A stretch of 64,000 bases of DNA from an uncultured Clostridia bacterium. GTDB lineage: Bacteria; Bacillota; Clostridia; TANB77; CAG-508. Numbering within the stretch: the stretch's first letter is position 1; each line of letters opens with the position of its first letter. The stretch lies in NCBI GenBank assembly GCA_946529215.1, contig CAMMZC010000004.1:1618-65617 (forward strand), in the 5' to 3' direction. The notes beneath the pieces are model-generated. The model had not been told where the DNA came from and searched no databases. It saw only the letters and a program-made list of their open reading frames with translations. Both the position numbers and the translations under genes were made by a program. This document shows, piece by piece, positions 4,876-53,816 of the stretch.

Positions 4876-4882
4876 TAAAAAA

Positions 4883-4906
4883 GGATGCAAAACTGCATCC
4901 TTTTTT
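4883..4906 (+). terminator. Rho-independent terminator
   Basis: ggatgcaaaactgcatcc hairpin followed by tttttt, immediately after the stop at 4875. Confidence 0.65.
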
Positions 4907-4977
4907 AAAAATTTTCATTGTTTTTTTATATTAGATATATTATAATAAAAGTAGAAAATTTTTTTAGGAGAAAAATT

Positions 4978-6090
4978 ATGGGTACAAAAGAGTTAGTAAA
5001 AAGCGAAGTAGAAGAATATGCCAAATTTGATTTAATAAGATATGCACAAGTTTGGGAAGATGCAGATATCTTATTAGAAGCTTTGCAAATAAACGAAAAT
5101 GACAATATTCTATCAATTGCATCTGCAGGTGAAAATGCTCTTGCAATGCTTACAAAAAATCCAAATAAGGTTTATGCAATAGATTTAAATTCAAATCAAA
5201 TAGCATGTACAGAATTAAAAAAGATTGCATATAAGTTTTTAAATTATGAAGAATGTATGCAATTAATAGGTGTTTTTGATTGTAGTAATAGAACTGACAT
5301 ATATGACAAAATTAAAAAAGAATTAAGTGATGAATCACAAAAATATTTTGATGAAAATATAGAGATTATAAAAAAAGGAATAATACACACAGGAAAGTTC
5401 GAAAAATATTTTCTAATCTTTGGGCAAAAGGTATTGCCACTAATACATAACAAAAAAACAAGAAAAGAATTATTAGAAAAAAAGACAAAAGAAGCAAGAA
5501 TTGTTTTTTATAACAAAAAATGGAATAACATAAGATGGAATTTATTGTTTAGAATATTTTTCTCAAGAACTGTAATGGGCAAGTTAGGTAGAGATAAAGC
5601 ATTTTTTAGATATGTAAATGTAAATGTTGCTGAGCATATTTTAGCAAGAACAAAATATGCAATAACAGAGTTAGATACCTCAGAAAATCCCTATTTACAT
5701 TATATAATAAATGGTAAATATGAAAATGTGTTACCATTAGCATATAGAAAAGAAAATTTTGAAACGATAAAAAGAAATATAGACAAATTAGTTTTATTAA
5801 AAGAATCAGTAGAGACATTTATAGAAAGAGATGATATAGACTATATTAGCAAATACAATTTAAGTGATATTTTTGAATATATGGATGATACTCAGATGTG
5901 TAAGATATTTGAAAAAATGAATATAAAGTCTGGAAAAGGAACAATTATTGCATATTGGAATATGCTTGCAGACAAGAGATTATCAAAGTATTTTCAAAAC
6001 CTTGAATTTAAAGAAAAAGAGTCAGAGGAATTACTAAAAAGAGATAAAGCATTCTTTTATAGTAAATTTATTGTAGAAGAGATTATTTAA
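4978..6090 (+). CDS. DUF3419/BtaA-like protein (S-adenosylmethionine:diacylglycerol 3-amino-3-carboxypropyl transferase family)
   Basis: The likely start is ATG 4978 (MGTKELV) after the RBS aggag. The track ORF starts upstream at 4918. The segment IRYAQVWEDADILLEALQINENDNILSIASAGENALAMLTKNPNKVYAIDLNSNQIACTELKKIAYKFLNYEE matches, as I remember it, the conserved N-terminal core of BtaA/DUF3419 proteins. Confidence 0.55.
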   Translation: MGTKELVKSEVEEYAKFDLIRYAQVWEDADILLEALQINENDNILSIASAGENALAMLTKNPNKVYAIDLNSNQIACTELKKIAYKFLNYEECMQLIGVFDCSNRTDIYDKIKKELSDESQKYFDENIEIIKKGIIHTGKFEKYFLIFGQKVLPLIHNKKTRKELLEKKTKEARIVFYNKKWNNIRWNLLFRIFFSRTVMGKLGRDKAFFRYVNVNVAEHILARTKYAITELDTSENPYLHYIINGKYENVLPLAYRKENFETIKRNIDKLVLLKESVETFIERDDIDYISKYNLSDIFEYMDDTQMCKIFEKMNIKSGKGTIIAYWNMLADKRLSKYFQNLEFKEKESEELLKRDKAFFYSKFIVEEII

Positions 6091-6105: not shown

Positions 6106-7452
6106 ATGATAATAGAATGGAAAAGCATATTATTAATAATAACAATAATATTTGTAATGCTTTTAATTATAAAATTAATAGATAAAAAAAGAAAACTAAA
6201 TGGGGAAGTAAAAAGAAAATTATTCCATACTAGTATGGGAATATCAATGCTTTTATTGCCACATATTTTTACTTCAACATTATCTGTAGGTGTGCTTGGA
6301 ATTATTGCATTAGTAATAATGTATTTTTTGAAAAATACGAAATTAAAAAATTGTCTTGGCACAATACTTTATGATATTGATAGGGAGTCACTAGGAGAAG
6401 TATTTTTTGTGATCTCGGTTTTTTCAATTTTCTATTTATCAAAAGGAGATAAGATTTTATATAGTATTCCAATACTAATATTAACATTTGCAGATAGTAC
6501 GGCAGCACTTATTGGAAAAAATTATGGAAAAAATAACTTGGCACAATTTAATGAAGATACTAAAAGTTTAGAAGGCAGCTTTATGTTTTTTATGGTTGCT
6601 TTTATGACAACACTTGTTCCAATACTTCTATATACTAATGTAGGAAGAGAGGAAACTTTAATAATATCTGCAATAGTTGGTTTTAATGTTGCACTAGTAG
6701 AAATGATTTCACATTCTGGAAATGACAATTTATTAATTCCTTTAACAACTTTTGCTTTTGTATCCACACATATAGGATATGATTTGCAAACATTAAGATT
6801 ACATTTAATATTTTTTATAGCAATATTTTTACTTGTTACAATTGCAAATAGAGTTAAAGCATTAAGTAAGTTAGCAATTGTAGAAGCAATAGTAGTGGGG
6901 TATTTAACTACAATACTTTATGGAGGTTATGCAATTATTCCACCACTAATTTTGATAATGACTGTAATGAGATTACCAAAAAGAAGACCTAATGAAAAAG
7001 AAAACATATATGATGCTAGAATAATAGAAACTAATGTACTTATCCCAATAGCGATTTGTGGACTTGTTGCAATAACAGGTTGGAAAAAAGAATTTTTTAT
7101 GATTTATGCTACAGCATATGCTATGCATTTAATAGTAAATACCTTTGTCAGACTTAAATACTATATTAATTTATCAGAGACAGATAGTATTTTACTTTCA
7201 ATAGCAAAAGGATTTGGACTCATTTTCATACCAAGCTTAATCATACAAAAATTAGTATTTAATGAGATGATAAATTTTATAATGTTTATTACAATGATTA
7301 TTGCTATGGTTTTAAGTGCAGTAATGATTTATATAAAAAAGAAAAATGTGAAAATAGAAGAAATATCAATAGACAATGGTTTTATGCATATGAAAATAGT
7401 GTTTATTCTAACAATGGCAATAGGAGCAGTACAATTAATTCAAATACTTTAG
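6106..7452 (+). CDS. Polytopic membrane protein with an N-terminal CTP-transferase (CdsA/dolichol-kinase/phytol-kinase-like) domain
   Basis: About 12 predicted TM helices. The motif DSTAALIGKNYGKNNLAQFNEDTKSLEGSFMFF resembles the K...KT.EG signature of the CTP_transf_1 (PF01148) family. It sits 15 nt downstream of the previous gene. Confidence 0.5.
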   Translation: MIIEWKSILLIITIIFVMLLIIKLIDKKRKLNGEVKRKLFHTSMGISMLLLPHIFTSTLSVGVLGIIALVIMYFLKNTKLKNCLGTILYDIDRESLGEVFFVISVFSIFYLSKGDKILYSIPILILTFADSTAALIGKNYGKNNLAQFNEDTKSLEGSFMFFMVAFMTTLVPILLYTNVGREETLIISAIVGFNVALVEMISHSGNDNLLIPLTTFAFVSTHIGYDLQTLRLHLIFFIAIFLLVTIANRVKALSKLAIVEAIVVGYLTTILYGGYAIIPPLILIMTVMRLPKRRPNEKENIYDARIIETNVLIPIAICGLVAITGWKKEFFMIYATAYAMHLIVNTFVRLKYYINLSETDSILLSIAKGFGLIFIPSLIIQKLVFNEMINFIMFITMIIAMVLSAVMIYIKKKNVKIEEISIDNGFMHMKIVFILTMAIGAVQLIQIL

Positions 7453-7468: not shown

Positions 7469-8392
7469 ATGGAATTTAAAATAGATAAGCAAGGAAAAGA
7501 TATTAGAGTAGCTTTAATTAATGAAGAAAAAGAAATAGCAAAAGCAACTTGCTATTTTGAAAATACTCCTATGGTTGATGATAAAAATATAGGATGTATA
7601 GGAGAATTTGAAACAGAAGATAAAGAAGCAGGAGTTAAAATTTTAAACAAATGTGAAGAAATTTTAAAAGAAAAAAATGTTAGCTTAATTGTTGCTCCGA
7701 TGAATGGGAATACATGGAAAAAGTATAGAACTATGAAATATACAAACGGAGATAGTTTGTTTTTATTAGAAAATGTGAATCCTATAGAACATAATGAAAT
7801 ACTGAAAGAAGCGGGATTTGAAGAAATTGATACATATACTTCAACAAAAGGATTTATAAAAGATGCATATAAGTCAGAAGCATTAGATTTAGCAGAAGAA
7901 AATTTGAAAGAAGAAAATATTATAATTAGAAATTTTAACAAACAAAACTACATTACGGATTTAAAGAAGATTTTTAATGTTTCCAAACAAAGTTTTACTA
8001 GAAATCCATTTTATACACCAATAGAGGAGAATGACTTTTTGAAACAGTATGAACAATATGTTGCTATGTGTGATGAAGAATTAATTTTATTAGCTGAAAA
8101 AGATGGACAAGAAGTAGGTTTTGTATTTTGTGTTCCAAATTTTAATGAGGCTAAAGAAGGTAAGAAAATTGAGACACTTATTCTAAAAACTATAGCTGTT
8201 TTACCAGAATATGAGTATTTAGCAATTGGAAATGTGTTATTAAACAAAATTTCAAAAGTTGCTGAAAATAAAGGATTTTTAAAATGGATTTTTGCATTTA
8301 TGTATAGTAATAATACTTCTCAAAAAATGGCAAAAAGAAATGGAACAGAGATAATTAGAGAATATGCACTATATGGAAAGAATTTTGCCTAG
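7469..8392 (+). CDS. GNAT-fold acyltransferase-like protein (possible N-acyltransferase)
   Basis: 307 aa, cytoplasmic. The C-terminal part VLPEYEYLAIGNVLLNKISKVAENKGF resembles a degenerate GNAT motif A. It lies inside the operon, 16 nt after the previous stop. Confidence 0.4.
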   Translation: MEFKIDKQGKDIRVALINEEKEIAKATCYFENTPMVDDKNIGCIGEFETEDKEAGVKILNKCEEILKEKNVSLIVAPMNGNTWKKYRTMKYTNGDSLFLLENVNPIEHNEILKEAGFEEIDTYTSTKGFIKDAYKSEALDLAEENLKEENIIIRNFNKQNYITDLKKIFNVSKQSFTRNPFYTPIEENDFLKQYEQYVAMCDEELILLAEKDGQEVGFVFCVPNFNEAKEGKKIETLILKTIAVLPEYEYLAIGNVLLNKISKVAENKGFLKWIFAFMYSNNTSQKMAKRNGTEIIREYALYGKNFA

Positions 8393-8433: not shown

Positions 8434-9927
8434 ATGAACCTAGCAAATCAATTGGTTATAAATCGCAATAATAGGCCAAATAAAATTTGTTTAATTCAGA
8501 ATAACAGAAGAATTACATATGATGATTTATATAAAAAAGTATCAAATTTTAAAAAATATATTGAGCAAAGAGGAATAAAAAAGGGAGATAAAGTATTGGT
8601 TTTAGCTCCGATGTCAGTAGACTTATATGTTACTCTTCTTTCTGTTTGGGCACTTGGTGCAACAGTATGTTTTATGGATGCTGGATTTATAAAAAACGGA
8701 ATGAAGAAAAATGAATTTGATGATATAAATGCAGTTATTGGAATAAGTAAGTATATTTTATACTCAAACATAAATAAAAATTTAAGAGGACTAAAGATAA
8801 AAATAAATACAAGTGTAATTGAGAAATTAAATGAAGAAAGCTTATTAGAAAATCAAGAAGTAGATAAAGATTTTCCAGCTATTATGACATATACAAGTGG
8901 AACAACAGGAAAACCTAAAATAGCAGCAAGAAGTCATGAATTTTTAGAATGTCAAGCAAACATTTTACAGAAACATTTGAATTATGAAAGTGAAGATATT
9001 GAGCTTTCTTCAATACCAATTTTTACATTATCTAATATAGATATAGGAATTACTACTGTTATAGCAAATGCAAATTTTTCTAATTTAGGTAGCTCAAATT
9101 CAAGAAAACTTATTAATCAAATAATAGAAAACAAAATAAATAGATTAATGGCAGCTCCAGGTGTACTTAATTTAATAATTAATTTTTGTTTAAAATATGA
9201 TATTACATTAAGCAATATAAAAAAGGTTTTTACAGGAGGAGGGGCAATATTTTTAGATTTTATAGAAAAATTAAAAAAAGTTTGTCCAAATGCAAAAATA
9301 TATACACTATATGGTTCTACAGAAGCGGAGCCAATTGCAGAACTTGATATTGATGAGATGACTTTTAAATATTATGAAGATACAAAAAATGGAAAAGGTA
9401 TTTTGGCTGGAAATATAATTGGTGTAGATGATTGCCGAATTATAAAAACAGGAGTAAATGAAATAGGTAGTATTACAGAAGAAGAATTTAAAAATATGCA
9501 AACTGATGAAGTTGGAGAAATAGTTGTAACAGGAAGTAATGTGCTTAAAGGATATGTAAATGGAATTGGTGACAAGGAAAATAAATTTAAAGTAAATGAT
9601 AAAATTTACCATAGAACAGGCGATTTAGGTTTAATAGATGAGAATAATAAATTATGGCTTAGAGGTAGAATTAAAGAACCATATTTTAACATAGAAGCAT
9701 GCTTACATGCAAAATTAAAAATTGGTAAGACTGCTATTTTTAAATATAATGAAAAACTTATTTTAGTTTTAGAAAAAAGTGATTTTAACACTTTAGAAGA
9801 AATAAAAGATGCAATTTCATTTGCAAAAATTGATGAAATAAAATATGTAAAGAAGATTCCTGTTGATAAAAGACACAGTACAAAAGTAGATTATAAAGAA
9901 TTAAAGAGAATTTTAGGAATGGAGTAA
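8434..9927 (+). CDS. AMP-dependent synthetase/ligase (acyl-CoA or acyl-ACP synthetase-like adenylating enzyme)
   Basis: Adenylation core motifs: MTYTSGTTGKPK (A3), YGSTEAEP (A5), YHRTGDLGLIDENNKLWLRGR (A7/A8) and a C-terminal Lys. RBS aaggagg precedes the ATG. Confidence 0.8.
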   Translation: MNLANQLVINRNNRPNKICLIQNNRRITYDDLYKKVSNFKKYIEQRGIKKGDKVLVLAPMSVDLYVTLLSVWALGATVCFMDAGFIKNGMKKNEFDDINAVIGISKYILYSNINKNLRGLKIKINTSVIEKLNEESLLENQEVDKDFPAIMTYTSGTTGKPKIAARSHEFLECQANILQKHLNYESEDIELSSIPIFTLSNIDIGITTVIANANFSNLGSSNSRKLINQIIENKINRLMAAPGVLNLIINFCLKYDITLSNIKKVFTGGGAIFLDFIEKLKKVCPNAKIYTLYGSTEAEPIAELDIDEMTFKYYEDTKNGKGILAGNIIGVDDCRIIKTGVNEIGSITEEEFKNMQTDEVGEIVVTGSNVLKGYVNGIGDKENKFKVNDKIYHRTGDLGLIDENNKLWLRGRIKEPYFNIEACLHAKLKIGKTAIFKYNEKLILVLEKSDFNTLEEIKDAISFAKIDEIKYVKKIPVDKRHSTKVDYKELKRILGME

Positions 9928-9929
9928 TT

Positions 9930-10832
9930 ATGAATTTTATTAAAAAATGGTATACATATCAAAAGGAAAGATTTCCAGTATTAATGTATGGAATATATAT
10001 TTTTGCAATAGTATTTTCTACATATAGTTTTGTGAATTGGTTAAATAACTCATTGTCATATTCAAGTGTAATAATAAAACCATTTGAATTTAAATGGAAT
10101 ATTGTAGGAATAATGTTTATTGTTGCTTTTTTACAGTTTTTAATGGTACGAATTATAGATGAATTTAAAGATTATGAAGAAGACTGCAAATACAGACCAT
10201 ATAGACCAGTACCAAGAGGCTTAGTTACTTTAAAAGAATTAAGAGTGTTATTCATAATATGTGTAATTATACAATTTTCAATAACAGCGATTTTTTGTGC
10301 AAATGCAATACCATTTTTAATTGCAGTGTGGATATTTTTTGCTATTATGAGTAAAAGTTTTTTTATAAAGAAAATAGTAGAAAAACATATATTACTAGAG
10401 GTGGCATTAGATGAGATATTAATGCCAGTTTTAGTTGTATATTTATCTATTTTTCCACTAAAACAAATTGTAATTGATAAATACTTTTTCTTATTTTTAA
10501 TTATGACATATATAATTTCTTGGATAGTTGAAATAGCAAGAAAAGTAAGATGCAAAGAGGATGAAGAAAAAGGTGTAAAAACTTATACAGCAGTATTTGG
10601 AATTAAAAAAGCTACTCTACTTTTGAGTGCACTAGAAATAATTTTAGCATGTATTCAAGGTATAATATTAAAAAAATATACTATTTCAGTTATATGCTTA
10701 ATTTTGGCAGTTATTTTAATTAATATTGGATTTATAACAAAACAAAATAAAAAGTTTGCAAAACTTACAGAATTATCAGCAAATATGTATATTTTCCTTG
10801 TTTATTTTAGTATGGGATTATTATTAATTTAA
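9930..10832 (+). CDS. UbiA-family prenyltransferase-like integral membrane protein
   Basis: 300 aa with about 8 TM helices. DEFKDYEEDCKYRPYRPVPRGLVTLKELRVLF is very similar to the UbiA motif NDxxDxxxD...RPLPSGxVTxKEAxxLF. Its start overlaps the preceding stop (9927/9930). Confidence 0.55.
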   Translation: MNFIKKWYTYQKERFPVLMYGIYIFAIVFSTYSFVNWLNNSLSYSSVIIKPFEFKWNIVGIMFIVAFLQFLMVRIIDEFKDYEEDCKYRPYRPVPRGLVTLKELRVLFIICVIIQFSITAIFCANAIPFLIAVWIFFAIMSKSFFIKKIVEKHILLEVALDEILMPVLVVYLSIFPLKQIVIDKYFFLFLIMTYIISWIVEIARKVRCKEDEEKGVKTYTAVFGIKKATLLLSALEIILACIQGIILKKYTISVICLILAVILINIGFITKQNKKFAKLTELSANMYIFLVYFSMGLLLI

Positions 10833-10846: not shown

Positions 10847-13800
10847 ATGAAATATGTATTAGAAAGTGATAGTAATAATTACGAACTTATGGGTGGAAAG
10901 GCAACAGCTTTGTCTAGAATTGGAAAAGTGTTAGATAATATTCCAGAATGGTTTGTTGTAGCATATACTGGATTTAATAAAGAAACCAGAGTTATTGATG
11001 ATGAGGCAAAAAAAGAAATAGAACAAAAGCTAAAAGAGTTTTCTGAAGGTGATTATTTTGCAGTTAGATCTTCAGCAGGAAATGAAGATTCTAGTGATAA
11101 CTCTTTTGCAGGACAATTTGACACGTTTTTGTATGTAAAAAAACAAGATGTAATTCAAAAAGTATGTGATGTATATTTATCAGCATTTTCTGATAGAATT
11201 GATACATATAGAAAAGAAAATAATATAGAAGAAATAATGATTCCATCTGTTATAGTACAGAGAATGGTAAATTCGGAAAAAGCTGGAGTTGCATTTGGAG
11301 CAAATCCAGTTAATTCTAATATAAAGGAAGTTGTGGTATCAGCAGTTTTTGGATTAGGAAGTGGGCTTGTAGATGGAATTGCAACTGCAGATACATATAA
11401 GATAGAAAACAATAAATTAAAAAAAGAAATTGTTTCAAAAGATTTTATGCATGTTTTAGATGGAAAAGATGTAATTCAAAAAGAGGTTAGCAAAGAGCAA
11501 AAAGATGTACAAGTATTAAGTGATAAACAAATTTTAGAAGTAAAAGATTTGGTAAAAAAAGCAAGTGAATTTTTTGGAAGATATCAAGATATTGAATGGG
11601 CTTATGAAGGAGAAAAACTATATTTACTGCAATCTAGACCTATTACTACTTTAACAAGTAGTAAAGAAGGAAAAATAAATGTATTTGATAATAGTAATAT
11701 AGTAGAAAGCTATGGAGGAATTACAACACCTTTAACTTTTTCTTTTATAAGAATGGTATATGAAAATGTTTATATAGAATTATGCAAAATATTTAATGTA
11801 AAACAAGAAAAAATCGAGATGAACTCTAGTATGTTCAAAAATATGCTTGCACTTATTGATGGAAGAGTTTATTACAATTTGTATGGATGGTATGGCTTAC
11901 TTTCTATGTTTCCAGGACTTGGAAGCAATAAAAAATTTATGGAACAAATGATGGGAGTAAAAGAATCTTTGCCAGATGATTTATTCCCTGTACCTCAAGC
12001 TACTTTTAAAGATAAAATAGGACTTGTAAATACAGGATGGGGGTTGGTAAAAGGCTTTTTAAAAATTAGAAAAATGACAGATAAGTTCTATGACAGACTA
12101 AATGATGCATTGGAAGATAAAGACATAAATAGTATGGATTTATACGAGTTACACGATTATTATTATGAGCTTGAAAAAAAGTTATTACATAAATGGGACG
12201 CACCACTTGTAAATGATTTTTTAGCTATGATTTTTTATGGACAATTAAAAGAACAATGTAAAGAACTTTTTCAAGAAGAAGGAAATATGGTACATAATGA
12301 CTTATTGTGTGATGAGGGTGGAATAATTAGTAGTGAGCCTGCAAAAAGAATTAAAGAAATGGCCAAAATCGCAAAAGATAATGATGAACTTATAAAACTT
12401 TTAGAAAATAAAGATTTTTTATATGTTCAAAAAGAGCTTCCAAAATATGAAGAATTCAATAAAATGCTTAATGAGTATTTAGATAAGTTTGCAGATAGGT
12501 GTTTAGAAGAACTTAAATTAGAAACGCTTACACTTAGAGATAATCCTTCAAGTTTATATTCATCAATTGCGACATTTGCAAAAAGAATAAAAGAAAAAGG
12601 ATTAGAAGAAATAGACGAGAAAAAGAATAGGGAGAATGCAGAAAAAAGAGTAAGAGAAAAATTAAGATTTAAATTTACAAAAAAAGCTAAATTTGATTTT
12701 ATTTTGAAACAAGCAAGATACACAGTAAAAAATAGAGAAAATCTTAGATTTGAAAGAACTAGACTTTTTGGAAGGGTAAGAGAGCTATTTTTAAGAATAG
12801 GTTTTATTCTAACTTCTATGAATGTAATTGAAGATAAAAGAGATATTTTCTATTTAGAAGTAGATGAAATATTATTTTATATAGATGGAAAATCTACTAC
12901 AAATAATTTAAAGGAATTAATAAGTATAAGAAAAGAACAATATTTGAAATATCAAAATATGAGCCCAGATGACAGATTTTATTCTTATGGAGCAGTTAAT
13001 ATTGGTAATACCTTTAAAAGAGAAAGTGATGTACAAGGTGATAAAAAAGCAAAATTAGAATTAAAAGGAATTGGAGCATCACCAGGAAAAGTAACAGGTA
13101 GAGTAAGAGTAATTAGAAATCCTGAGAATGCGAAATTAGAACAAGGAGAAATTTTAGTTGCAGAATTTACTGATCCTGGATGGATAATGCTATTTCCAGC
13201 TGCAAGTGGAATATTGGTTGAAAGAGGAAGTTTACTTTCACATTCAGCTATAGTTTCTAGAGAACTTGGAATACCAGCAGTTGTTGGAATAACAGGATTA
13301 ATAGATACTTTAAAAGATGGAGATATTGTTGAACTAGATGGAACTTCTGGAATAGTAAAAGTAAAAAATCAAGAAATAAGAAATTTAAGAGAATTATTGT
13401 ACAATTCTGCAAATGAATATGGAGATAATGTATTATATCCAGAAAACAATATTACATATAAAGAATTTAAAGAAAGAGTAACTTCATTAAGTGGTTATTT
13501 AGTAGATAAAGCATTTAAAAATATTGCTATTTTATCTGAAAATAGATATGAGTGGGAAATGACATTTTTTGCAATAGTTTGCTGTGGAAAAATTGTTATA
13601 CCAATAGATAAAAGTTTGCCTAAAAAAGAAATTGAAAATATTATAAATAGTGCAAAAATAGAAGCAGTATTTTGTTCTGGAAAATATGAAAATGAAGTAA
13701 AAGAGATTAAAGAAAGTAATCAATATTTAAAAAACATTATATCTTTTGATAGTAATGATTTTGCTAATTTAATTAATCAAGAACCAAGAGAACAAGATAG

Positions 13801-15112
13801 TATAGAAATAGAAGAAGATGATATTTGTGCAATCATATTTACTTCTGGAACAACAGAAAATCCTAAAGGTGTAATTCTAACTCATAGAAATATATGTTCT
13901 AATGTAGTAAATGTTTCAAAAGTATTTGAAATAACACAAAATGATAGATGCTTATCTGTAGTGCCACTAAATCACGTATTAGAAGGATTATTTTGCTTTT
14001 TACAATCTTTTTATAAAGGCGCACAAAGAGTATTTTGTAACGAATTAGATGAAATAATAAACTATATAAAAAAATACAAGATTACATTTATGGGAGCTGT
14101 TCCAGCAATTTATGAATATTTATATAAACAAAAAGAAGAATTAAAACAAGAAATAAATCATATAAATATGTTTATGAGTGGAGGAGCTAAATTACAAGAA
14201 AATCTTATTAAAGGATATGAAGAAATCGGAATACAATTAGTGCAAGGATATGGTTTAACAGAATGTTCTCCAGTTGTAAGTATAGAAAATAATACTAGTA
14301 GTAAAATGGGCTCGGTCGGAAAAGTAATACCAGGAGTAGAAGTGGTAATAAAAGATCAAGATGAAGAGGAAATAGGCAAAATTTTAGTAAAAGGAGAAAA
14401 TATAACAAAAGGCTATTTCGAAAATGTGGAAGATACTCAAAAAACAATAATTGACGGATGGCTACATACAGGTGATTTAGGTAAAATAGATGAAGAAGGA
14501 TACTTATTTATATGTGGAAGAAATAAAGATTTAATAGTACTTGAAAATGGTAAAAAGATTTTTCCAAGTGAGATAGAAGGTTTATTAAATAAAATAGAAA
14601 ATGTAAAAGAGTCACTTGTTTATGAAAAAGAAAATAAGTTATATGCAAAAATAATTTGCTCAAAAGATATTTTTGAAAATAAAGAAGAGAAAGAAATATA
14701 TCAATTTTTGAATGACGAGATTGAAAAGATAAATGAAAATCTTCCTCAGTTTAAGCGAATTAACGACATTGTTTTATCTACTGAAGAATTGGAGAAAACA
14801 GTAACAGGCAAAATAAAGAGAAACGCTGAATTAGATAAAATTTTTAAAGAAGAACCTATTGATAATAGTGAAAACAATGAAGCTACTTATTTTGGAAAAA
14901 TTAAGAGCATTTTAACAAAACAACTAGGAAATAAAGAAATAAATCTTGAGTCTGAATTATTAAGAGATTTAGGTGCAGATTCTTTAGATTTGGTAGAAAT
15001 ATTTCTTTCTTTAGAAAAAGAATTTAATATAAAAATTACAAAAGAACAAAGAATGAGTGTTAAAAAGGTTAGAGATATTTTGAATATATTACAAAATATC
15101 GAAAAACAATAA
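10847..15112 (+). CDS. Tri-module fusion protein: PEP-utilizing / rifampin-phosphotransferase-like (PPDK_N ATP-grasp plus phosphohistidine swivel domain), an acyl-AMP ligase (adenylation) domain, and an acyl carrier protein
   Basis: aa 1-330 carry PPDK_N motifs (GGKATALSRIG, FAVRSSAGNEDSSDNSFAGQFDTFLYV, QDIEWAYEGEKLYLLQSRPITTL). aa ~730-810 form a PEP-utilizers mobile domain with a catalytic His (GEILVAEFTDPGWIMLFPAASGILVERGSLLSHSAIVSRELGIPAVVG). aa ~870-1330 form an AMP-binding domain (IIFTSGTTENPKGVILTHRN, GYGLTECSP, GWLHTGDLGKIDEEGYLFICGRNKD, TVTGKIKR). The C-terminus is an ACP with a phosphopantetheine-attachment site (LGADSLDLVEIFLSLEKEF). Confidence 0.8.
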   Translation: MKYVLESDSNNYELMGGKATALSRIGKVLDNIPEWFVVAYTGFNKETRVIDDEAKKEIEQKLKEFSEGDYFAVRSSAGNEDSSDNSFAGQFDTFLYVKKQDVIQKVCDVYLSAFSDRIDTYRKENNIEEIMIPSVIVQRMVNSEKAGVAFGANPVNSNIKEVVVSAVFGLGSGLVDGIATADTYKIENNKLKKEIVSKDFMHVLDGKDVIQKEVSKEQKDVQVLSDKQILEVKDLVKKASEFFGRYQDIEWAYEGEKLYLLQSRPITTLTSSKEGKINVFDNSNIVESYGGITTPLTFSFIRMVYENVYIELCKIFNVKQEKIEMNSSMFKNMLALIDGRVYYNLYGWYGLLSMFPGLGSNKKFMEQMMGVKESLPDDLFPVPQATFKDKIGLVNTGWGLVKGFLKIRKMTDKFYDRLNDALEDKDINSMDLYELHDYYYELEKKLLHKWDAPLVNDFLAMIFYGQLKEQCKELFQEEGNMVHNDLLCDEGGIISSEPAKRIKEMAKIAKDNDELIKLLENKDFLYVQKELPKYEEFNKMLNEYLDKFADRCLEELKLETLTLRDNPSSLYSSIATFAKRIKEKGLEEIDEKKNRENAEKRVREKLRFKFTKKAKFDFILKQARYTVKNRENLRFERTRLFGRVRELFLRIGFILTSMNVIEDKRDIFYLEVDEILFYIDGKSTTNNLKELISIRKEQYLKYQNMSPDDRFYSYGAVNIGNTFKRESDVQGDKKAKLELKGIGASPGKVTGRVRVIRNPENAKLEQGEILVAEFTDPGWIMLFPAASGILVERGSLLSHSAIVSRELGIPAVVGITGLIDTLKDGDIVELDGTSGIVKVKNQEIRNLRELLYNSANEYGDNVLYPENNITYKEFKERVTSLSGYLVDKAFKNIAILSENRYEWEMTFFAIVCCGKIVIPIDKSLPKKEIENIINSAKIEAVFCSGKYENEVKEIKESNQYLKNIISFDSNDFANLINQEPREQDSIEIEEDDICAIIFTSGTTENPKGVILTHRNICSNVVNVSKVFEITQNDRCLSVVPLNHVLEGLFCFLQSFYKGAQRVFCNELDEIINYIKKYKITFMGAVPAIYEYLYKQKEELKQEINHINMFMSGGAKLQENLIKGYEEIGIQLVQGYGLTECSPVVSIENNTSSKMGSVGKVIPGVEVVIKDQDEEEIGKILVKGENITKGYFENVEDTQKTIIDGWLHTGDLGKIDEEGYLFICGRNKDLIVLENGKKIFPSEIEGLLNKIENVKESLVYEKENKLYAKIICSKDIFENKEEKEIYQFLNDEIEKINENLPQFKRINDIVLSTEELEKTVTGKIKRNAELDKIFKEEPIDNSENNEATYFGKIKSILTKQLGNKEINLESELLRDLGADSLDLVEIFLSLEKEFNIKITKEQRMSVKKVRDILNILQNIEKQ

Positions 15113-19345: not shown

Positions 19346-19408
19346 GTTATTATAAAGTACACAATATACAATAATAATTACTAAATAATAACAAAGAAGG
19401 TGAAAGAT

Positions 19409-20053
19409 ATGAATATTTGTAAGACTGTTTTGGAGTGTATAGATCAATATCCTCAAGATGAACCAATATTTATTGAAGACATAAAAAGATATGTAATACA
19501 AAAGTGCAAAAATGAAGAAAAACAAAATGTTTCAAAAAATATAAATGTTATTTTAAATAGATTAAAAAACGAAGGTATTATTAGAGCAGAATATAAAGGT
19601 GTATATTATAAGCCTGTGTATACTATATTTGGAGAAATGGGGTTAGATACTAATAAATTAAGAAAACTAAAATATTTAGAAGATAGAGATGGGAATATAA
19701 AAGGTTATATAATAGGAGCAAAATTATTCAATATGCTTGGTTTAACAACTTTAGTACCCAATGTTACAGACATAGTTACAAATGAATGTAAGTATCATAA
19801 ACAATATGATGAAAAACTAAGAACCTATATAACAAAGCCTAAAATAGAAATAACAAATGAAAATTATAGGTACTTGCAGTTTATAGATATATTAGAAAAC
19901 AAAGATAATATTTATATTGAAGCTGATAATGCAAATGAAATTTTATATAGTATTATTGAAGAATGTAAATTAGATTTTGAAAAAATAATAAAATATGTTA
20001 GAGAAACAAATAGTAAAAATGTATTAGACAAGTTGTTAGTTCTAGCAAGATAG
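19409..20053 (+). CDS. abiEi: AbiEi-family antitoxin / transcriptional regulator (type IV toxin-antitoxin, abortive infection)
   Basis: About 215 aa. The central motif GYIIGAKLFNMLGLTTLVPN resembles the GY.sg.sAL..hGL AbiEi signature. It sits immediately upstream of a DUF1814 nucleotidyltransferase. ATG 19409 follows the RBS agaagg. The track ORF starts at GTG 19400. Confidence 0.6.
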   Translation: MNICKTVLECIDQYPQDEPIFIEDIKRYVIQKCKNEEKQNVSKNINVILNRLKNEGIIRAEYKGVYYKPVYTIFGEMGLDTNKLRKLKYLEDRDGNIKGYIIGAKLFNMLGLTTLVPNVTDIVTNECKYHKQYDEKLRTYITKPKIEITNENYRYLQFIDILENKDNIYIEADNANEILYSIIEECKLDFEKIIKYVRETNSKNVLDKLLVLAR

Positions 20054-20064
20054 GAGAACAGATA

Positions 20065-21021
20065 ATGCAATTTCATTTGAAAGAACAGGATTTTAAAAAA
20101 TTTATTAATGATATGAGCAAAAATATCAATATTGATGCAGACATAATCGAAAAGGACTATTATGTTTGTTCTGTATTAAAAGAATTAGCTGAAAAACAAG
20201 ATTATTTAAAAGCTTATTTTAAAGGTGGAACTGCTGTATATAAAATATTAGATACGATGAATAGATTTTCAGAAGATATTGATTTAACTGTTGAAGTAAT
20301 AAAAGAAGCTTCAAACAATAGCAATAAAACAAGATTAAAAAAATCTGCATTAGGATATAAAATACCTGGCTTAGAATTGGATAAAGATAAAACAAAAGAT
20401 GTTAAACAAAGTGTTACAGCATATTATAAATATAAATCTTTTTTTGAAAATGTAAAAAATCAGTTACATAAGGCAGGAGAAATACAAGTTGAAGCGACAT
20501 CATTTACAATTAGTGAACCTACAGAATTATATGTAATAGAACCTATTTTATATAAATATGCAAACGAAAGAGAAAGAGAGATTTTAGCAAAAGAATTTGA
20601 TATAAAACCTTTTGAAATAAAAGTTCAAAAATTAGAAAGAATCTTTATAGACAAGCTATTTGCAGCTGAACTATATTTTGAAAAGCAAATGTATATTGAT
20701 TTATCAAAACATTTATATGACTTAACTATATTGTTTAAAACAAAGAGGATACAAGATTTTTTACACAATAAAAAAGAGTATTTAAAAATTGTTAATTATA
20801 AAAGAGAAGAAGAAATCTATAGAAAAGGTGGAGTAGATAGAAAAAATAAAATTAAAGATTTTGGCTACTTTGATATGGAATATAATGATGATTTCTTAAA
20901 AGCCTTTAAATTAATGCAAGATAAGTATATTTTTAAAGATGAATATAGAATAACAATAGAAGATGTGAAAGAGGTGTTAAATGAAGTTAGAGAGTGGATA
21001 ATAAAATTAGAGAGGATGTAA
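20065..21021 (+). CDS. abiEii: AbiEii-family nucleotidyltransferase toxin (DUF1814)
   Basis: YFKGGTAVYKILDTMNRFSEDIDLTVEV matches the AbiEii KGGTAL...RFSEDxDxT nucleotidyltransferase motif. It starts 11 nt after the AbiEi stop. Confidence 0.75.
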   Translation: MQFHLKEQDFKKFINDMSKNINIDADIIEKDYYVCSVLKELAEKQDYLKAYFKGGTAVYKILDTMNRFSEDIDLTVEVIKEASNNSNKTRLKKSALGYKIPGLELDKDKTKDVKQSVTAYYKYKSFFENVKNQLHKAGEIQVEATSFTISEPTELYVIEPILYKYANEREREILAKEFDIKPFEIKVQKLERIFIDKLFAAELYFEKQMYIDLSKHLYDLTILFKTKRIQDFLHNKKEYLKIVNYKREEEIYRKGGVDRKNKIKDFGYFDMEYNDDFLKAFKLMQDKYIFKDEYRITIEDVKEVLNEVREWIIKLERM

Positions 21022-25633: not shown

Positions 25634-26161
25634 GTGATTGAATTGGATATTATAATCAGAACAGCGACAATTAATGATGCTGAAAAGGTTGCAAAAATCA
25701 AAATAGAAGGTTGGCAAACAGCATATAGAGGTATTATAGATGATGAATTTCTTGATAATATGAACTTAAATGAAGAAATAGAGAAAAGAAAAGATAATAT
25801 AAAAGATGGTGAAGATATTATTGTAGCAGAATTTAACAATGAAATTGTAGGATTCTGTTTATATAGAAATTACATTAAAGATCCTGAAAGCTATCCTAAT
25901 GCAGATTGTGAAATATCATCTCTTTATGTAAAAAGTTCATTAAAAAGAAAAGGAATAGGCACAAAATTAATGCAATATGTAATTCAAAAACTACAAAATC
26001 AAGGAAAAACTAAAATGATTTTAGGTTGCTTAAAAGGAAACTATCCTTCAAGAGCTTTCTATGAAAAAATGGGAGGAAAACTTTTAAAAAAAGAAAAAAT
26101 TACATTTGGAAATAAAGAATATGAAGAAGTAATATATGAATATGATATTGCTAAAATGTAA
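25634..26161 (+). CDS. GNAT family N-acetyltransferase
   Basis: GTG start after the RBS aaggggaag. GNAT motif A: VKSSLKRKGIGTKLMQYVIQK. Confidence 0.75.
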   Translation: MIELDIIIRTATINDAEKVAKIKIEGWQTAYRGIIDDEFLDNMNLNEEIEKRKDNIKDGEDIIVAEFNNEIVGFCLYRNYIKDPESYPNADCEISSLYVKSSLKRKGIGTKLMQYVIQKLQNQGKTKMILGCLKGNYPSRAFYEKMGGKLLKKEKITFGNKEYEEVIYEYDIAKM

Positions 26162-26182
26162 AAATGAAGGGAATGAAAATAT

Positions 26183-26599
26183 ATGGATTATAAAATTGAA
26201 AATAATATAACTCCAGAAGAATATAATGAATTAAGAAATTCGGTAGGCTGGGATTCAAAAGAAAAACATATAATACAAAACGCATTAGATAGTAGCGTTG
26301 TAGTAAAGAAAGTAATTTTTGAAAATAAAACAATAGGAATGGCTAGAGCAATTGGAGATGGATTATATTACCTAATTGTAGATGTTGTTGTTCATTCAGA
26401 TTATCAGAAAAAAGGTATAGGTAAATTATTAATAGAATCAATCGTTAAATATATAGAAGAACGTACTGAAATAGGACAAAAGTGCAGTATAAATTTAATA
26501 TCTATGAAAGGAAAAGAAAAATTTTACGAAAAATGTGGATTTAGAACAATACCTTTTGATTACACAGGGTATGGAATGACATTGAGAATTGAAAAGTAA
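26183..26599 (+). CDS. GNAT family N-acetyltransferase
   Basis: 138 aa. VHSDYQKKGIGKLLIESIVKYI is GNAT motif A. Confidence 0.75.
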   Translation: MDYKIENNITPEEYNELRNSVGWDSKEKHIIQNALDSSVVVKKVIFENKTIGMARAIGDGLYYLIVDVVVHSDYQKKGIGKLLIESIVKYIEERTEIGQKCSINLISMKGKEKFYEKCGFRTIPFDYTGYGMTLRIEK

Positions 26600-26613
26600 G
26601 GAGTGAGTAATTA

Positions 26614-27171
26614 ATGGAAATTAAAAGTAAAAGACTTATTTTAAGAAATTGGGAAGATGGAGATGTAAATGATATAGTAGAAGGATTAAATAATATAGAG
26701 GTTGCAAAATGGTTGGCTAGTGTTCCTTATCCATATACTGAAAATGATGCTAGAAATTTTATTGAAAGAGCTAAGAATAATGATGAAAATGTAAAAATAG
26801 CATTAGCAATTGTTTTAAAAGAAAGCAATAAAGTAATCGGTGGTACAGAAATTAGAAATATCAATAAAAAAGATGGAACAGCAGGTGGTGGAATATGGCT
26901 TAATGAAAAATATCAAAAGAATGGTTATGGAACTGAGGCTTTCAGTAGCAGAAATAAATATTGTTTTGATGTTTTAGGTTTAAGAAGAATTGAAAATGGC
27001 TACTTTCCAGATAATGAAAAATCAAGAAAAATGCAGATGAAATTAGGTTATAAAGATGAGGGAATAAGAAGAAAGAAATTCCTATGTTTAGCAACAAATG
27101 AATATGTAGATGAATGTATAACAGGATTGTTGAAAGAAGAGTTTATAGAATGGAGTGATAAAAATGTATAA
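26614..27171 (+). CDS. GNAT family N-acetyltransferase (RimJ/RimL-like)
   Basis: 185 aa. LNEKYQKNGYGTEAF plus the RimL-like layout (MEIKSKRLILRNWEDGD...). Confidence 0.7.
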   Translation: MEIKSKRLILRNWEDGDVNDIVEGLNNIEVAKWLASVPYPYTENDARNFIERAKNNDENVKIALAIVLKESNKVIGGTEIRNINKKDGTAGGGIWLNEKYQKNGYGTEAFSSRNKYCFDVLGLRRIENGYFPDNEKSRKMQMKLGYKDEGIRRKKFLCLATNEYVDECITGLLKEEFIEWSDKNV

Positions 27172-28012
27172 GAAAATAGAACCTAATAATAAAATTTTTG
27201 AAAATGCTGAATATCAAAAAGATAAATATAAATTTAATATTGTATCTAAAATTTTAGCAGGAGAAGAAGTATTACTATATAGTGATGAACAAAATTACTT
27301 TTTAGCAAGAAACAAAGTAGGAATGCCAACATGGATTTGGACAAAAGATGGATTAGAAGATAAACAAATACTTGAAGAAATAAAAGAAGCAATGAAATTA
27401 TTTTTAACAGATTTAGATTGTGATCAATTTACTTGTAAAAAAGAATATTATAATTATCTAATGCAAACTAGTTATGATAAACTTAATAATGAAGATTACT
27501 TTGAGTTAGGATTTTTAACTTGTAATAAAGTGAAAAGCGTAAAACAAACAGACGGAAAGATGATGATGTGTACAAAAGAAGATTACGAAACTCTTTTGAG
27601 TCTTTTTGTACAATTTACTGAATTTATGAATAAAACAACAAATAATAATAGTAAAGCCAATATAGAAGAATTAAAAGAAGAAATGAATAGTCAAATAGAA
27701 CAAAATCACTTATTTTGTTGGAAAAATAAGGAAGAAAAAATAGTTTGCATTGCAAATTTTCAGGTGTTGGGAGATACTGCTAGAATAGGGCATGTTTTCA
27801 CATTAGAAGAAGAAAGAGGAAAAGGTTATGCTGCTAATTTGGTTCATGATTTAACAGAAAGATTATTAAATGAAGGATTACAGCCACTATTATATACAGA
27901 TTATAATTATCCGGCATCTAATAAAGCATATATTAATGCAGGATATGAAGATAAAGGAATACTAGTTAATTTTAGCTGTAGTAGAGAAAAAAGAAAAGTG
28001 AAACAGAAATAG
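27164..28012 (+). CDS. Two-domain protein with a C-terminal GNAT acetyltransferase domain
   Basis: The C-terminal part, GHVFTLEEERGKGYAANLVHDLTERLL, is GNAT motif A. Its start overlaps the previous stop (ATG 27164, or GTG 27155). Confidence 0.6.
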   Translation: MYKKIEPNNKIFENAEYQKDKYKFNIVSKILAGEEVLLYSDEQNYFLARNKVGMPTWIWTKDGLEDKQILEEIKEAMKLFLTDLDCDQFTCKKEYYNYLMQTSYDKLNNEDYFELGFLTCNKVKSVKQTDGKMMMCTKEDYETLLSLFVQFTEFMNKTTNNNSKANIEELKEEMNSQIEQNHLFCWKNKEEKIVCIANFQVLGDTARIGHVFTLEEERGKGYAANLVHDLTERLLNEGLQPLLYTDYNYPASNKAYINAGYEDKGILVNFSCSREKRKVKQK

Positions 28013-29850: not shown

Positions 29851-30642
29851 ATGAGAAGCATAAAGTTAGCTTTATTAAATATTAAGAAAAATATAAAAAA
29901 TGAAAAAGAATTAAAAAGTTCATTTATAATCTCAGTTGTAGGAATGATGTTAAACAATATAGCATTTTTAATTCTGTGGTATTATTTTGGAAAAACAGTA
30001 GGAGAATTAAATGGATGGAAACCAATGGATATATTTGGATTATATGGATTTTCTTGTACTAGCTTTGGAATAGTGGCTTCATTATTTTATGGATTGTTTG
30101 AGATACCAAACTATATAAGTACAGGTAATTTTGATAAATACTTATTAACACCCAAAAATATTCTTTTAAAAGTTTCAACATCAAAAATATCAACAAGTGC
30201 ATTTGGGGACTTATTATTTGGAATTACTTGTTTTATAATATTTTCAGTATATAGTAAAATATCTTTAATACAATTGATGTTAGCAATTTTTTTAATTATT
30301 ATATCATCAATAGTGTTTTACGCATTTTCACTAGTATGTATGAGTATCTCATTTTATCTAATGGATGGATATAATGTTTCTCAAGGCTTATATGGAATGT
30401 TTGTAAGCAATTCAATTTACCATGGAGGAGCATATACAGGGGTATTAAGAATTGTTTTTACTTTTGTAATGCCATCACTATTATTAGGTGCGATACCAGT
30501 TGAAATTATAAAAAATATATCTTTAAAAAGTATAATAATGATTGTATTATTAGCAATTTGCTGGTTGATTTTTTCAATTGGATTTTTTTATAAGTCATTA
30601 AAAAAATATGAAAGTAATAATTTATATGGATTTGGTGGATAA
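29851..30642 (+). CDS. ABC-2 family transporter permease
   Basis: 263 aa with 6 TM helices. It starts 3 nt after the previous gene. Confidence 0.6.
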   Translation: MRSIKLALLNIKKNIKNEKELKSSFIISVVGMMLNNIAFLILWYYFGKTVGELNGWKPMDIFGLYGFSCTSFGIVASLFYGLFEIPNYISTGNFDKYLLTPKNILLKVSTSKISTSAFGDLLFGITCFIIFSVYSKISLIQLMLAIFLIIISSIVFYAFSLVCMSISFYLMDGYNVSQGLYGMFVSNSIYHGGAYTGVLRIVFTFVMPSLLLGAIPVEIIKNISLKSIIMIVLLAICWLIFSIGFFYKSLKKYESNNLYGFGG

Positions 30643-30695
30643 TTGGACAAAGGTATGTTTCTTTTGTATAAAGAAAAAAAGGAGGTTGATCATAA

Positions 30696-31258
30696 TGAAA
30701 TATTTTAAAAAATTAATAGGAGAAAGAATATATTTATCTCCAATGAATATAGAAGATGCAGAAAAATATGTGGAATGGTTTTGTGATTTTAAAATGACAG
30801 ATGGAGTTGGAAAAAGCAGTAGCATTACAACAGTTCAATCAGAAATAGAGTGGATTGAAAATAATAATAAAAATGGTGATTTGAATTTTGCAATTGTTAA
30901 TTTAGAAAATGATGAACTAATAGGAAACTGCGGAATTATGCATATAAATCATAAAGATAGATGTGCAGAAGTAGGACTATTTATAGGAAATGAGGAAAAC
31001 AGAAATAAAGGATATGGAGCAGAAACTTTACAACTACTATTAGATTATGGTTTTAATTATTTAAACTTAAATAATATTCATCTTGGAGTTATGGCTTTTA
31101 ATGAGAGGGCTATAGCATGCTATAAAAAAGTTGGATTTAAAGAATATGGAAGAAGAAGAGAAAGCTATTTCTTAAATGGAAAATACTATGATCACGTTTT
31201 TATGGATATTCTTGCAAGAGAATTTGATGGAAGCTATATAAAAAATAAAAATGCATAA
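30696..31258 (+). CDS. GNAT family N-acetyltransferase (RimL-like)
   Basis: The RBS aggagg precedes ATG 30696 (MKYFKKLIGERIYL...). The track ORF starts upstream at 30608. Motif A: NEENRNKGYGAETLQLLLDYGF. Confidence 0.7.
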
Positions 31259-39256: not shown

Positions 39257-39350
39257 ACAAGAAAAAACGCCAATTTACTTGTAGAAATTTGCAACTTGTT
39301 GTATAATCAAAGTAGATTATGTAGTATAAACAAAGGAGGGAACTTTACAA

Positions 39351-40465: not shown

Positions 40466-40506
40466 TTACTATATGTAAAAAAATAAATATTTTTTATAAA
40501 GCATTG

Positions 40507-40534
40507 CAGACACTCGTGTGGGGTGTCTGTTTTT
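40507..40534 (+). terminator. Rho-independent terminator
   Basis: cagacac-tcgtgtgggg-tgtctg followed by ttttt. Confidence 0.65.
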
Positions 40535-40671
40535 GATAGGTGCAAAAAAATATGTTTACAAAATGAAAAAAAAATGATATTATATAGAAAATAAAAACGT
40601 GCAGAGAAGAACTGGTTTCAACTGGACTAAAAAAGAACTGGTCTCTTTTGCACAGAGAGGAAGTAATAAAT

Positions 40672-41340: not shown

Positions 41341-41352
41341 GAAGGAGATAAC

Positions 41353-45229: not shown

Positions 45230-45417
45230 GGAGCAACAAGGTTAAGTTTCTTTGATTCGTGCGGTTGCCAAGCAACCTGCACATGTGTCGAAGCCACTTT
45301 TCTTATTTGTAATATTTCTGTAATCAAAACTTAATATAAAAAAGTAATAAATTTATTGAAAGATAAAAAGTAAATTGATATAATACAAGTATAGTAATAG
45401 AAAAAAGGATGTGTACT

Positions 45418-52858: not shown

Positions 52859-52893
52859 CCGCATATCAAAATAAAAAGAAAGGAGAAAATTAT

Positions 52894-53757: not shown

Positions 53758-53816
53758 ACAACATTAAAAAAAAGTGATAAAATTCTTAAAAATAGAAAAA
53801 CAACAAGGAGGAAATT

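Follow-up and report, generated by a model that had tools for sequence, protein, structure and literature searches.

A dikinase of the rifampin phosphotransferase type fused to an adenylation domain and an acyl carrier protein in a lipid-type operon of uncultured gut Clostridia

Why should a small-molecule dikinase be joined, in one polypeptide, to a unit that activates and tethers acyl chains? The question is raised by a gene at positions 10847-15112 (plus strand) in a 64,000-nucleotide stretch of DNA from an uncultured Clostridia bacterium (NCBI GenBank assembly GCA_946529215.1, contig CAMMZC010000004.1, positions 1,618 to 65,617; this whole stretch is referred to as the window). It is the final gene of an operon and encodes a 1421-aa fusion of a dikinase resembling rifampin phosphotransferase (RPH), an adenylation (A) domain and an acyl carrier protein (ACP). 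We report that the fusion is genuine, and we favour, with modest confidence, a reading in which it is a two-module enzyme: the dikinase would act on a lipid or isoprenoid intermediate, the A-ACP unit would supply an acyl chain, and both would serve a lipid operon. The predicted dikinase chemistry and acyl loading are based on homology and the predicted lipid product on gene context; what we say of the specific substrates and of the acceptor of the acyl-ACP is speculative. The operon context, which was overlooked in an earlier first-pass annotation of the DNA, is the main clue to the function.

Domain architecture and authenticity of the fusion protein

The reading frame comprises 1421 codons with zero internal stops, and an AGGAG ribosome-binding site lies approximately 9 nt 5' of its ATG. 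Five domains follow one another along the protein, i.e. ATP-grasp (PPDK_N), RPH-type substrate-binding, His-swivel, ANL adenylation and ACP, with the A domain directly C-terminal to the swivel domain. A Pfam scan gave matches to PPDK_N (PF01326; aa 52-278, E 3e-56), the PEP-utilizers mobile domain (PF00391; aa 765-835, E 3e-24), AMP-binding (aa 854-1191, E 3e-74), AMP-binding_C_3 (aa 1228-1330) and PP-binding (PF00550; aa 1351-1412, 32.4 bits vs a cut-off of 20.8), and precomputed Pfam data for this protein and its homologues assign PF27448 'Rph_4th' between the ATP-grasp and swivel domains. The four domains named in the first-pass annotation (ATP-grasp, His-swivel, adenylation and carrier) were thus all recovered. 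So was its observation that the phosphoenolpyruvate (PEP)/pyruvate TIM barrel is lacking, with zero Pfam matches to PEP-utilizers_C (PF02896) in the fusion at E <= 0.01.

The 1421-aa product is a genuine multidomain enzyme and not an assembly chimera. Its exact sequence is recorded on at least three contigs, from NCBI, JGI/IMG and ENA, and full-length fused homologues of 1403-1463 aa (53-90% identity) were recovered from many assemblies, independent of one another, in approximately 40 clusters at 90% identity; a chimera of two or three genes, which had been raised as a way in which the fusion might fail, is therefore rejected. The kinase and A-ACP halves are joined by an interdomain linker (aa 841-853; 13367-13405, plus strand), as defined by alignment columns and by checking the open reading frames (ORFs) of split loci. 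Its length varies among the fused homologues (up to approximately 70 aligned columns, K/E-rich in some), as expected of genuine interdomain linkers, and its position is that of the stop and start codons in relatives where the gene is split.

All relatives come from uncultured gut Clostridia, in metagenome-assembled genomes from rabbit, ruminants, chicken and Hadza people. When aa 222-1421 were searched against 1.84 billion representative proteins, fused proteins were found in one gut-Clostridia clade only, and the remaining long matches were an RPH-DUF3419 fusion, a di-A-domain protein and a nonribosomal peptide synthetase. No account of the fusion or of the gene cluster was found in the full-text literature, the searching of which was partly aimed at the cluster. 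As far as this could be tested, the architecture is indeed absent among characterised enzymes, as had been supposed, and we read the domain combination as a new architecture of known modules.

The kinase half (aa 1-840) consists, on the plus strand, of the ATP-grasp domain (aa 1-280; 10847-11686), the RPH-type substrate-binding domain (aa 281-740; 11687-13066) and the His-swivel, or PEP-utilizers mobile, domain (aa 741-840; 13067-13366). The first was delimited by Pfam, hidden Markov model (HMM) alignment to the Listeria monocytogenes RPH (RPH-Lm) structure 5FBS and invariant columns, the second by PF27448, HMM alignment and motif position, and the third by Pfam, HMM alignment and conservation. 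The extent first given for the kinase, the N-terminal 810 aa, holds in outline, but the boundary has to be moved to approximately 840 aa. What had been taken for a middle linker (aa 330-720) is the substrate-binding domain, which is among the best-conserved parts of the protein: mean identities among the fused homologues are 68%, 79% and 82% for the three kinase domains, respectively, so that only the short swivel domain exceeds it.

The best solved relatives of the kinase half are the Listeria RPH structures 5FBS and 5HV1 (E 1e-69 with the single sequence and 1e-85 with a profile). A low-confidence AlphaFold2 model, used only for coarse ranking with Foldseek, gave RPH as the only full-length match, and PEP synthase, PPDK and HpeI matched in fold to the ATP-grasp part only; the RPH-like layout proposed at first sight is in keeping with both results. 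The swivel motif SHSAIVSRELGIPAVVG (aa 798-814) includes His799 (codon 13241-13243), which in the HMM alignment is matched to His825 of RPH-Lm and is invariant in 47 homologues (21 fused and 26 unfused), and hence the catalytic His presumed in the first-pass annotation is in place. In the same alignment R74 and T93 correspond to R117 and T136 of RPH-Lm, and R630-E631-x-x-R634 to the catalytic R666-E667-x-x-K670, with the Lys replaced by Arg; all of these counterparts, like H799, are invariant across homologues, and K18 is the counterpart of K22 by motif position only. Mutagenesis of RPH-Lm has identified K22, R117, T136, R666, E667, K670 and H825 as essential for the two half-reactions (PMC4844700). 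Residues 271-519 of the fusion are unalignable to RPH-Lm.

Among curated models the nearest is NCBIfam NF004881 (PRK06241.2-2, labelled 'PEP synthase'), which matches aa 48-842 in a single stretch with 741 bits, below its equivalog cut-off of 883. The RPH equivalogs NF041857 and NF000283 match in two separate stretches (323 bits vs 999 and 226 vs 1700), and the scores for TIGR01418 PEP_synth (249 vs 740), PRK06464 (261 vs 598) and, over aa 50-840, PigC (326 vs 1300) and RedH (314 vs 1350) are likewise far below the cut-offs. Membership of RPH proper, PEP synthase, PigC and RedH was rejected, as the curated cut-offs are missed widely and there is no TIM barrel. Because the catalytic residues match and the curated thresholds are missed, we assign the kinase half as RPH-type but not RPH proper: it belongs to the RPH / PigC / PRK06241 superfamily of small-molecule dikinases, with ATP -> AMP + Pi + phospho-substrate as the predicted stoichiometry, and is predicted to work like an RPH-family dikinase, but it is neither a PEP synthase nor a PigC nor a rifampin phosphotransferase. 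In all, 15,941 representative proteins match at E <= 1e-30, those that match only the A-ACP part of the query sequence being counted as well.

The A-ACP half (aa 854-1421) comprises an ANL adenylation domain (aa 854-1335; 13406-14851, plus strand; Pfam, NCBIfam PRK06187, PDB matches and motifs) and an acyl carrier domain (aa 1351-1412; 14897-15082, plus strand; Pfam PP-binding and the invariant D1378 and S1379). The ANL core motifs TSGTTENPKG (999-1008), GYGLTE (1134-1139), TGD (1208-1210), GR (1224-1225) and GKIKR (1321-1325) were identified, A3, A5, A7, A8 and A10 all being present; most are invariant in the 21 fused homologues, and A10 is degenerate in three deep-branching ones. The DSL phosphopantetheine site, described earlier as intact, is so: it lies within GADSLD (aa 1376-1381), with Ser1379 (codon 14981-14983) as the putative attachment residue, and both D1378 and S1379 are invariant in 21 homologues. 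The A domain scores 340 bits against PRK06187 and misses every NCBIfam equivalog cut-off; its best models are long-chain fatty-acid ligases, all with scores below the equivalog cut-offs. Its solved relatives in a PDB search are fatty-acyl-CoA synthetases, luciferase-type ANLs and the acyl-ACP synthetase AasS, and the nearest relatives of the A-ACP half outside the cluster are long-chain acyl-CoA-synthetase-type proteins of approximately 570 aa (36-41% identity). On these comparisons the A domain appears closest to enzymes of the long-chain fatty-acid-CoA ligase type. The A-ACP half changes much more rapidly than the kinase half and is under much weaker constraint, with mean identities of 46% and 42% among the fused homologues vs 68-82% for the kinase domains. 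No phosphopantetheinyl transferase was found among the window ORFs scanned, a set that excluded the shorter ORFs and, of the larger, a few such as 39296-41952.

The operon and its counterparts in other lineages

The operon consists of six tightly spaced genes (gaps 2-41 nt; all on the plus strand), and its 5' boundary is a hairpin at 4876-4907, identified by a terminator scan and by reading the sequence (a G+C-rich palindrome with flanking A and T runs), which is the terminator of an upstream fn3-domain gene. The first gene (4978-6090; Pfam DUF3419, E 2e-67) encodes a DUF3419 / BtaA-like protein, a predicted S-adenosylmethionine-dependent transferase; the mechanically called ORF starts with TTG at 4918, but ATG 4978 (370 aa) is likely to be the true start because AGGAG is present at 4966-4970 and alignments with homologues begin at approximately residue 17-27. 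The enzyme BtaA of betaine-lipid synthesis belongs to the DUF3419 family (Pfam; literature). The second gene (6106-7452) encodes a polytopic membrane protein of 448 aa with approximately 11 hydrophobic segments, which has no Pfam family and whose AlphaFold2 model (pLDDT 77.8, pTM 0.70) has no specific match among solved structures. Its N-terminal approximately 215 aa are conserved across phyla (motifs E..RK..H, D..A..G, KS.EG and G.DNL.P), and the C-terminal half is restricted to Firmicutes-type versions; the conserved charged motifs are typical of an enzyme, and the protein may be a CdsA / polyprenol-kinase-like enzyme.

The third product is a GNAT-like acyltransferase of 307 aa (7469-8392; Pfam Acetyltransf_1 at aa 188-292, E 1.5e-8) with an N-terminal domain without family assignment and a C-terminal GNAT domain, and syntenic homologues are present in all related loci. 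The fourth is a stand-alone ANL (acyl-AMP-forming) ligase of 497 aa without carrier domain (8434-9927; Pfam AMP-binding, E 7e-40), for which the NCBIfam scores (PRK09274, 268 bits; OleC-like, 145 bits) are both below cut-off and which is only 21-27% identical to the fused A domain (tblastn). The fifth, immediately before the fusion gene, is a UbiA-family intramembrane prenyltransferase of 300 aa with, according to hydropathy, approximately 8 transmembrane segments (9930-10832; Pfam UbiA, E 5e-18; NCBIfam PRK13592, 87 bits). It carries the Asp-rich motif DEFKDYEEDCKYRPYRP, and UbiA is a constant neighbour of the RPH-like gene, in 50 or more loci. No riboswitch or other RNA was detected upstream of the operon, there being no Rfam match anywhere in the window, and no tRNA genes were found in a scan for tRNA and mobile-element signals near the cluster. 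A promoter scan gave no enrichment over shuffled sequence and was not used as evidence.

The same six genes are present in every related Clostridial locus, and the set is shared by at least six phyla. The order is UbiA, RPH-like, DUF3419, membrane protein, GNAT-like and ANL in Verrucomicrobiota, Bacteroidota/Chitinophagales, Melainabacteria and Proteobacteria. The Acidobacteriota arrangement differs in that the DUF3419 and membrane protein genes are several kb off on the opposite strand, or undetected, and one short Planctomycetales contig carries the UbiA/RPH-like pair only. Non-Clostridial versions of the cluster have an HMG-CoA reductase gene directly upstream of UbiA in eight loci (L044, L046, L047, L049, L050, L051, L055 and L060; e.g. 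L047:7710-9071 and L060:7793-9034), and in two of these (L046 and L060) the RPH-like and DUF3419 genes are separated by one for an MMPL/RND transporter that has a sterol-sensing-type domain.

A variant cluster was found in Lachnospiraceae and Oscillospiraceae (L077:5246-14870 and L081:7757-16694, also L074 and L080). It comprises genes for a CarS-like cytidylyltransferase, a CDP-alcohol phosphatidyltransferase, UbiA, a GNAT-like homologue (355 aa) and two RPH-like paralogues, one after the CarS-like gene and the other after UbiA; phosphatidylserine decarboxylase is present in some loci (L081) and an ANL ligase in one (L077). The variant has the look of a complete pathway for phospholipid head groups, added onto the UbiA/RPH-like pair. 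Since UbiA, HMG-CoA reductase, MMPL, CarS, CDP-alcohol transferase, phosphatidylserine decarboxylase and the BtaA family all belong to lipid or isoprenoid metabolism, we infer that the product of the cluster is a membrane lipid or a lipid-like metabolite and that the UbiA/RPH-like pair forms the core of the cluster. The six-gene UbiA cluster 'ebo' of eustigmatophytes reportedly has a different gene set. The UbiA neighbourhoods in the Lipocone paper were also considered, and these are unrelated to the present cluster.

The window as a whole (approximately 26% GC) has the character of a bacterial chromosome (uvrA, asnB, recD2). It contains a gene for an MMPL-family transporter (60562-62619) with a divergent TetR regulator gene (59325-59918), approximately 45 kb from the lipid-type operon, and five GNAT acetyltransferase genes, four of them in a row, clustered at 25634-28012 and 30608-31258 beside an ABC-2 transporter set. 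A 217-aa ORF without Pfam match lies just before a gene for an AbiEii-type nucleotidyltransferase toxin (20065-21021), and the two (19400-21021) are probably a type IV toxin-antitoxin or abortive-infection pair. Genes with a defence or mobile-element flavour are located at 52181-58810 (DUF1016/YhcG PDDEXK nuclease, Bro-N, RecD2-like helicase and KAP-family NTPase). Finally, a 1643-aa ORF (45409-50340) has no Pfam match at E <= 1e-4, and the 439-aa ORF after it has only a fragmentary aldehyde-dehydrogenase match.

History of the fusion, proposed mechanism and alternatives

A check of ORFs in the loci analysed revealed three states. The gene is fused in the window and in L001/L002, L005 and L007; it is split in L006, L008, L012-L014, L016, L017, L019, L036 and L037, with an RPH-like gene of approximately 840 aa followed by an adjacent or overlapping A-ACP gene of approximately 545-600 aa; and the A-ACP gene is missing in L003, L009, L018, L020-L029 and others. 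Every A-ACP homologue examined, down to 44% identity, lies directly 3' of the RPH-like gene in this cluster, the stop codon of the one overlapping the start codon of the other. The divergence of the A domain tracks that of the RPH part (Spearman 0.80 and 0.89), so that a single acquisition followed by co-inheritance fits, and the comparison indicates that the A-ACP unit was probably acquired once and then inherited together with the kinase. In a rough neighbour-joining tree built from the kinase part, every one of the clade's deepest branches is fused, and proteins that are split or without A-ACP branch from within groups of fused ones; this suggests an old fusion with repeated fission and loss. 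The fusion most simply arose by loss of a stop codon between two neighbouring pathway genes, since in L016 and L036 a single in-frame stop divides the RPH-like and A-ACP ORFs.

Because close relatives are split or are without A-ACP, covalent linkage of the two halves is dispensable. An independent fusion (P0341, 1336 aa) joins an RPH-like dikinase (aa 269-929) to a DUF3419/BtaA-like domain (aa 943-1309) that is 42% identical to the DUF3419 protein of the window, and in the gene order of other phyla (the Gram-negative order) the RPH-like gene is followed immediately by DUF3419; this suggests that fusions in this system follow gene adjacency. Linkage thus argues for a shared pathway and not necessarily for substrate channelling. 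In one lineage (L084:7670-11979 and L085:1033-5342) the fused gene is broken, identically on at least four contigs, into three ORFs of 121, 1076 and 193 aa, which correspond to the start of the ATP-grasp domain, the rest of the kinase with the A core, and the C-terminal subdomain of the A domain with the ACP, respectively. Either the gene is decaying there, or it is naturally split at the hinge of the A domain.

In the mechanism that we propose, ATP would be bound in the ATP-grasp domain and its beta-phosphate taken by His799, with release of AMP + Pi. Moved by the swivel domain to the substrate-binding domain, the phosphate would there be positioned by R630, E631 and R634 for transfer to a substrate oxygen. 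The substrate of the kinase would be a lipidic or isoprenoid alcohol or its monophosphate, feeding or following the adjacent UbiA. The A domain would adenylate a fatty-acid-like carboxylate and load the acyl group onto the phosphopantetheine arm at Ser1379 of its own ACP, and the acyl-ACP would serve as donor for the GNAT-like acyltransferase. GNAT-fold enzymes with acyl-ACP donors operate in the synthesis of aminolipids and acyl-homoserine lactones, and since such enzymes exist we consider the GNAT-like protein the most plausible taker. The phospho-His mechanism itself is accepted for PigC/HapC and HpeHI (PMC13534948, PMC12167813).

Several points speak against this two-module reading. The known substrates of characterised RPH-family members are rifamycins, bipyrrole aldehydes and phenolics, none of these enzymes being known to act on a lipid, and the Clostridial clusters are without the HMG-CoA reductase found in other phyla. 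UbiA enzymes normally require diphosphate donors, and therefore one kinase alone does not explain the donor supply. The AlphaFold2 model of the kinase half is poor (pLDDT 62.6, pTM 0.39), so that the evidence for its fold is mainly sequence-driven, and the neighbour-joining tree behind the history of fusion and fission is rough. Moreover, with the gene fragmented in one lineage, some copies may be decaying.

Going one step further, and with less confidence than we place in the two-module enzyme, we would tentatively see in the RPH-like module the first small-molecule dikinase directed at lipids or isoprenoids, acting with UbiA in an undescribed multi-phylum lipid pathway together with a BtaA-like head-group enzyme, a GNAT-like acyltransferase, an ANL ligase and, in some versions, HMG-CoA reductase, an MMPL exporter or CarS, CDP-alcohol transferase and phosphatidylserine decarboxylase; a clade of gut Clostridia would then have recruited the A-ACP unit and welded it onto the kinase as a hybrid with two swinging carriers.

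The alternative that survives best, unlikely as we consider it, is that the RPH-like module acts on an intermediate tethered to the ACP in cis, yielding for example a phosphorylated hydroxyacyl-S-ACP or an activated phosphoester, with three activities acting on one bound substrate. The fused state is old and widespread in the clade; wherever the A-ACP gene occurs it is joined to the RPH-like gene or comes immediately after it, and never so with another gene of the cluster; and the geometry of a chain with two mobile carriers (swivel and ACP) would permit a hand-over. Yet the kinase is highly conserved in the many relatives that are split or without A-ACP, its orthologues in other phyla have no ACP in the cluster at all, and the A-ACP half is under much the weaker constraint. 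The position of the A-ACP unit is also what adjacency alone would give: the RPH-like gene is last in the Clostridial operon, where an appended gene fuses by default, and the RPH-DUF3419 fusion, a parallel case, joins genes that are neighbours in the other order. The single machine that phosphorylates, activates and tethers one substrate, as implied by the first-pass annotation, is thus not supported, given the split and A-ACP-less relatives, the faster evolution of the A-ACP half and the independent RPH-DUF3419 fusion.

Slightly less likely still is a condensation of the PigC/TamQ type, in which transient phosphorylation would turn an oxygen into a leaving group for coupling with a nucleophile derived from the acyl-ACP, without any stable phosphate ester. 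PigC/HapC chemistry does proceed via a phosphorylated intermediate with the same domain set, and the PigC and RedH models span almost all of the kinase half; their cut-offs, however, are missed by far. The annotated cluster has no pyrrole-pathway genes and no reductase or aminotransferase that would convert acyl-ACP to an amine, and its context is one of membrane lipid enzymes.

We regard it as very unlikely that the kinase half is what automatic annotation would make of it, namely a PEP synthase or a phosphotransferase for rifamycin resistance with a chance connection to an acyl-CoA ligase. Databases name the unfused homologues 'phosphoenolpyruvate synthase', the best NCBIfam match carries the same label, and RPH is the closest solved structure. 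Against these labels stand the missing TIM barrel, the low scores with TIGR01418 and the RPH equivalog, the substrate-binding residues 271-519 that cannot be aligned to RPH, and the constant operon partners, i.e. UbiA and lipid-type genes; in addition, distant clades of the family confer no rifampin resistance (PMC4844700). An assembly or gene-calling artefact that merged two or three genes through sequencing error, for which one might cite the AT-rich metagenome DNA and the close relatives with separate genes, some divided by a single stop codon, is hardly credible given the identical product on contigs from different sources and the many diverged fused clusters with linkers of variable length.

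The two-module reading bears on a very large family, the RPH / PigC / 'PEP-synthase-like' dikinases, for which only a handful of substrates are known. Like a Rosetta stone, the fused and split forms tie a well-conserved branch of it to an acyl-loading unit, to UbiA and to lipid-type genes, and this guilt by association offers a testable entry into a widespread uncharacterised branch and into a probably new lipid pathway. Should the operon make a membrane lipid, that lipid would be of a new class, and swivel chemistry with phospho-histidine would have gained a new use. The host organisms are abundant, uncultured gut Clostridia, and annotations of this family as 'phosphoenolpyruvate synthase' are misleading.

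Comparison with known systems

RPH-Lm (5FBS, 5FBT, 5FBU and 5HV1) has the same order of ATP-grasp, substrate-binding and C-terminal His-swivel domains, without TIM barrel, and the fusion holds counterparts of its K22, R117, T136, R666, E667, K670 and H825. Identity in the structural alignment is, however, approximately 22%, and half of the substrate-binding domain is unalignable. RPH is the product of a stand-alone resistance gene and has no A-ACP tail, whereas the fusion is encoded within a lipid-type operon.

PigC, HapC, RedH and TamQ share the RPH-like domain set and the phospho-His mechanism with the kinase half, although the scores of the fusion with the PigC and RedH models amount to approximately a quarter of the cut-offs. 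In the tambjamine pathway the PigC homologue TamQ cooperates with TamA, an A-ACP didomain for fatty acids, and this would be the nearest functional analogy. The tambjamine and prodiginine enzymes are separate proteins of a pyrrole pathway with reductase/transaminase, whereas here the two units are fused or adjacent and there are no pyrrole genes.

The two-component dikinases for phenolics HpeHI, CreHI and PpsAB (phenylphosphate synthase) are built from the same catalytic modules and illustrate that the family tolerates splitting and joining at domain borders. They function in the catabolism of small phenolics and separate the ATP-grasp part from the rest, in contrast to the single-chain kinase with a biosynthetic module described here. 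The A-ACP half, in turn, shares its ANL core motifs with AasS and with the A-ACP loading didomains of lipopeptide and lipid pathways, in which an ANL domain is likewise followed by an ACP with a DSL serine; these didomains join condensation, ketosynthase or reductase partners, and the partner in the fusion is a dikinase.

Finally, the archaeal route via DGGGP synthase, CarS and CDP-alcohol transferases and the plant salvage of phytol, in which VTE5/VTE6 feed the UbiA-type VTE2/ChlG, combine UbiA enzymes with phosphorylating or cytidylylating membrane enzymes and head-group enzymes, as the clusters discussed here may also do. The likeness extends to the CarS-like enzyme, CDP-alcohol transferase and phosphatidylserine decarboxylase of the variant clusters and to the linked HMG-CoA reductase in other phyla, but neither GGGP synthase nor glycerol-1-phosphate dehydrogenase was seen in the clusters. 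The archaeal and plant routes operate without an RPH-type dikinase, which in the clusters described here would be the phosphorylating enzyme.

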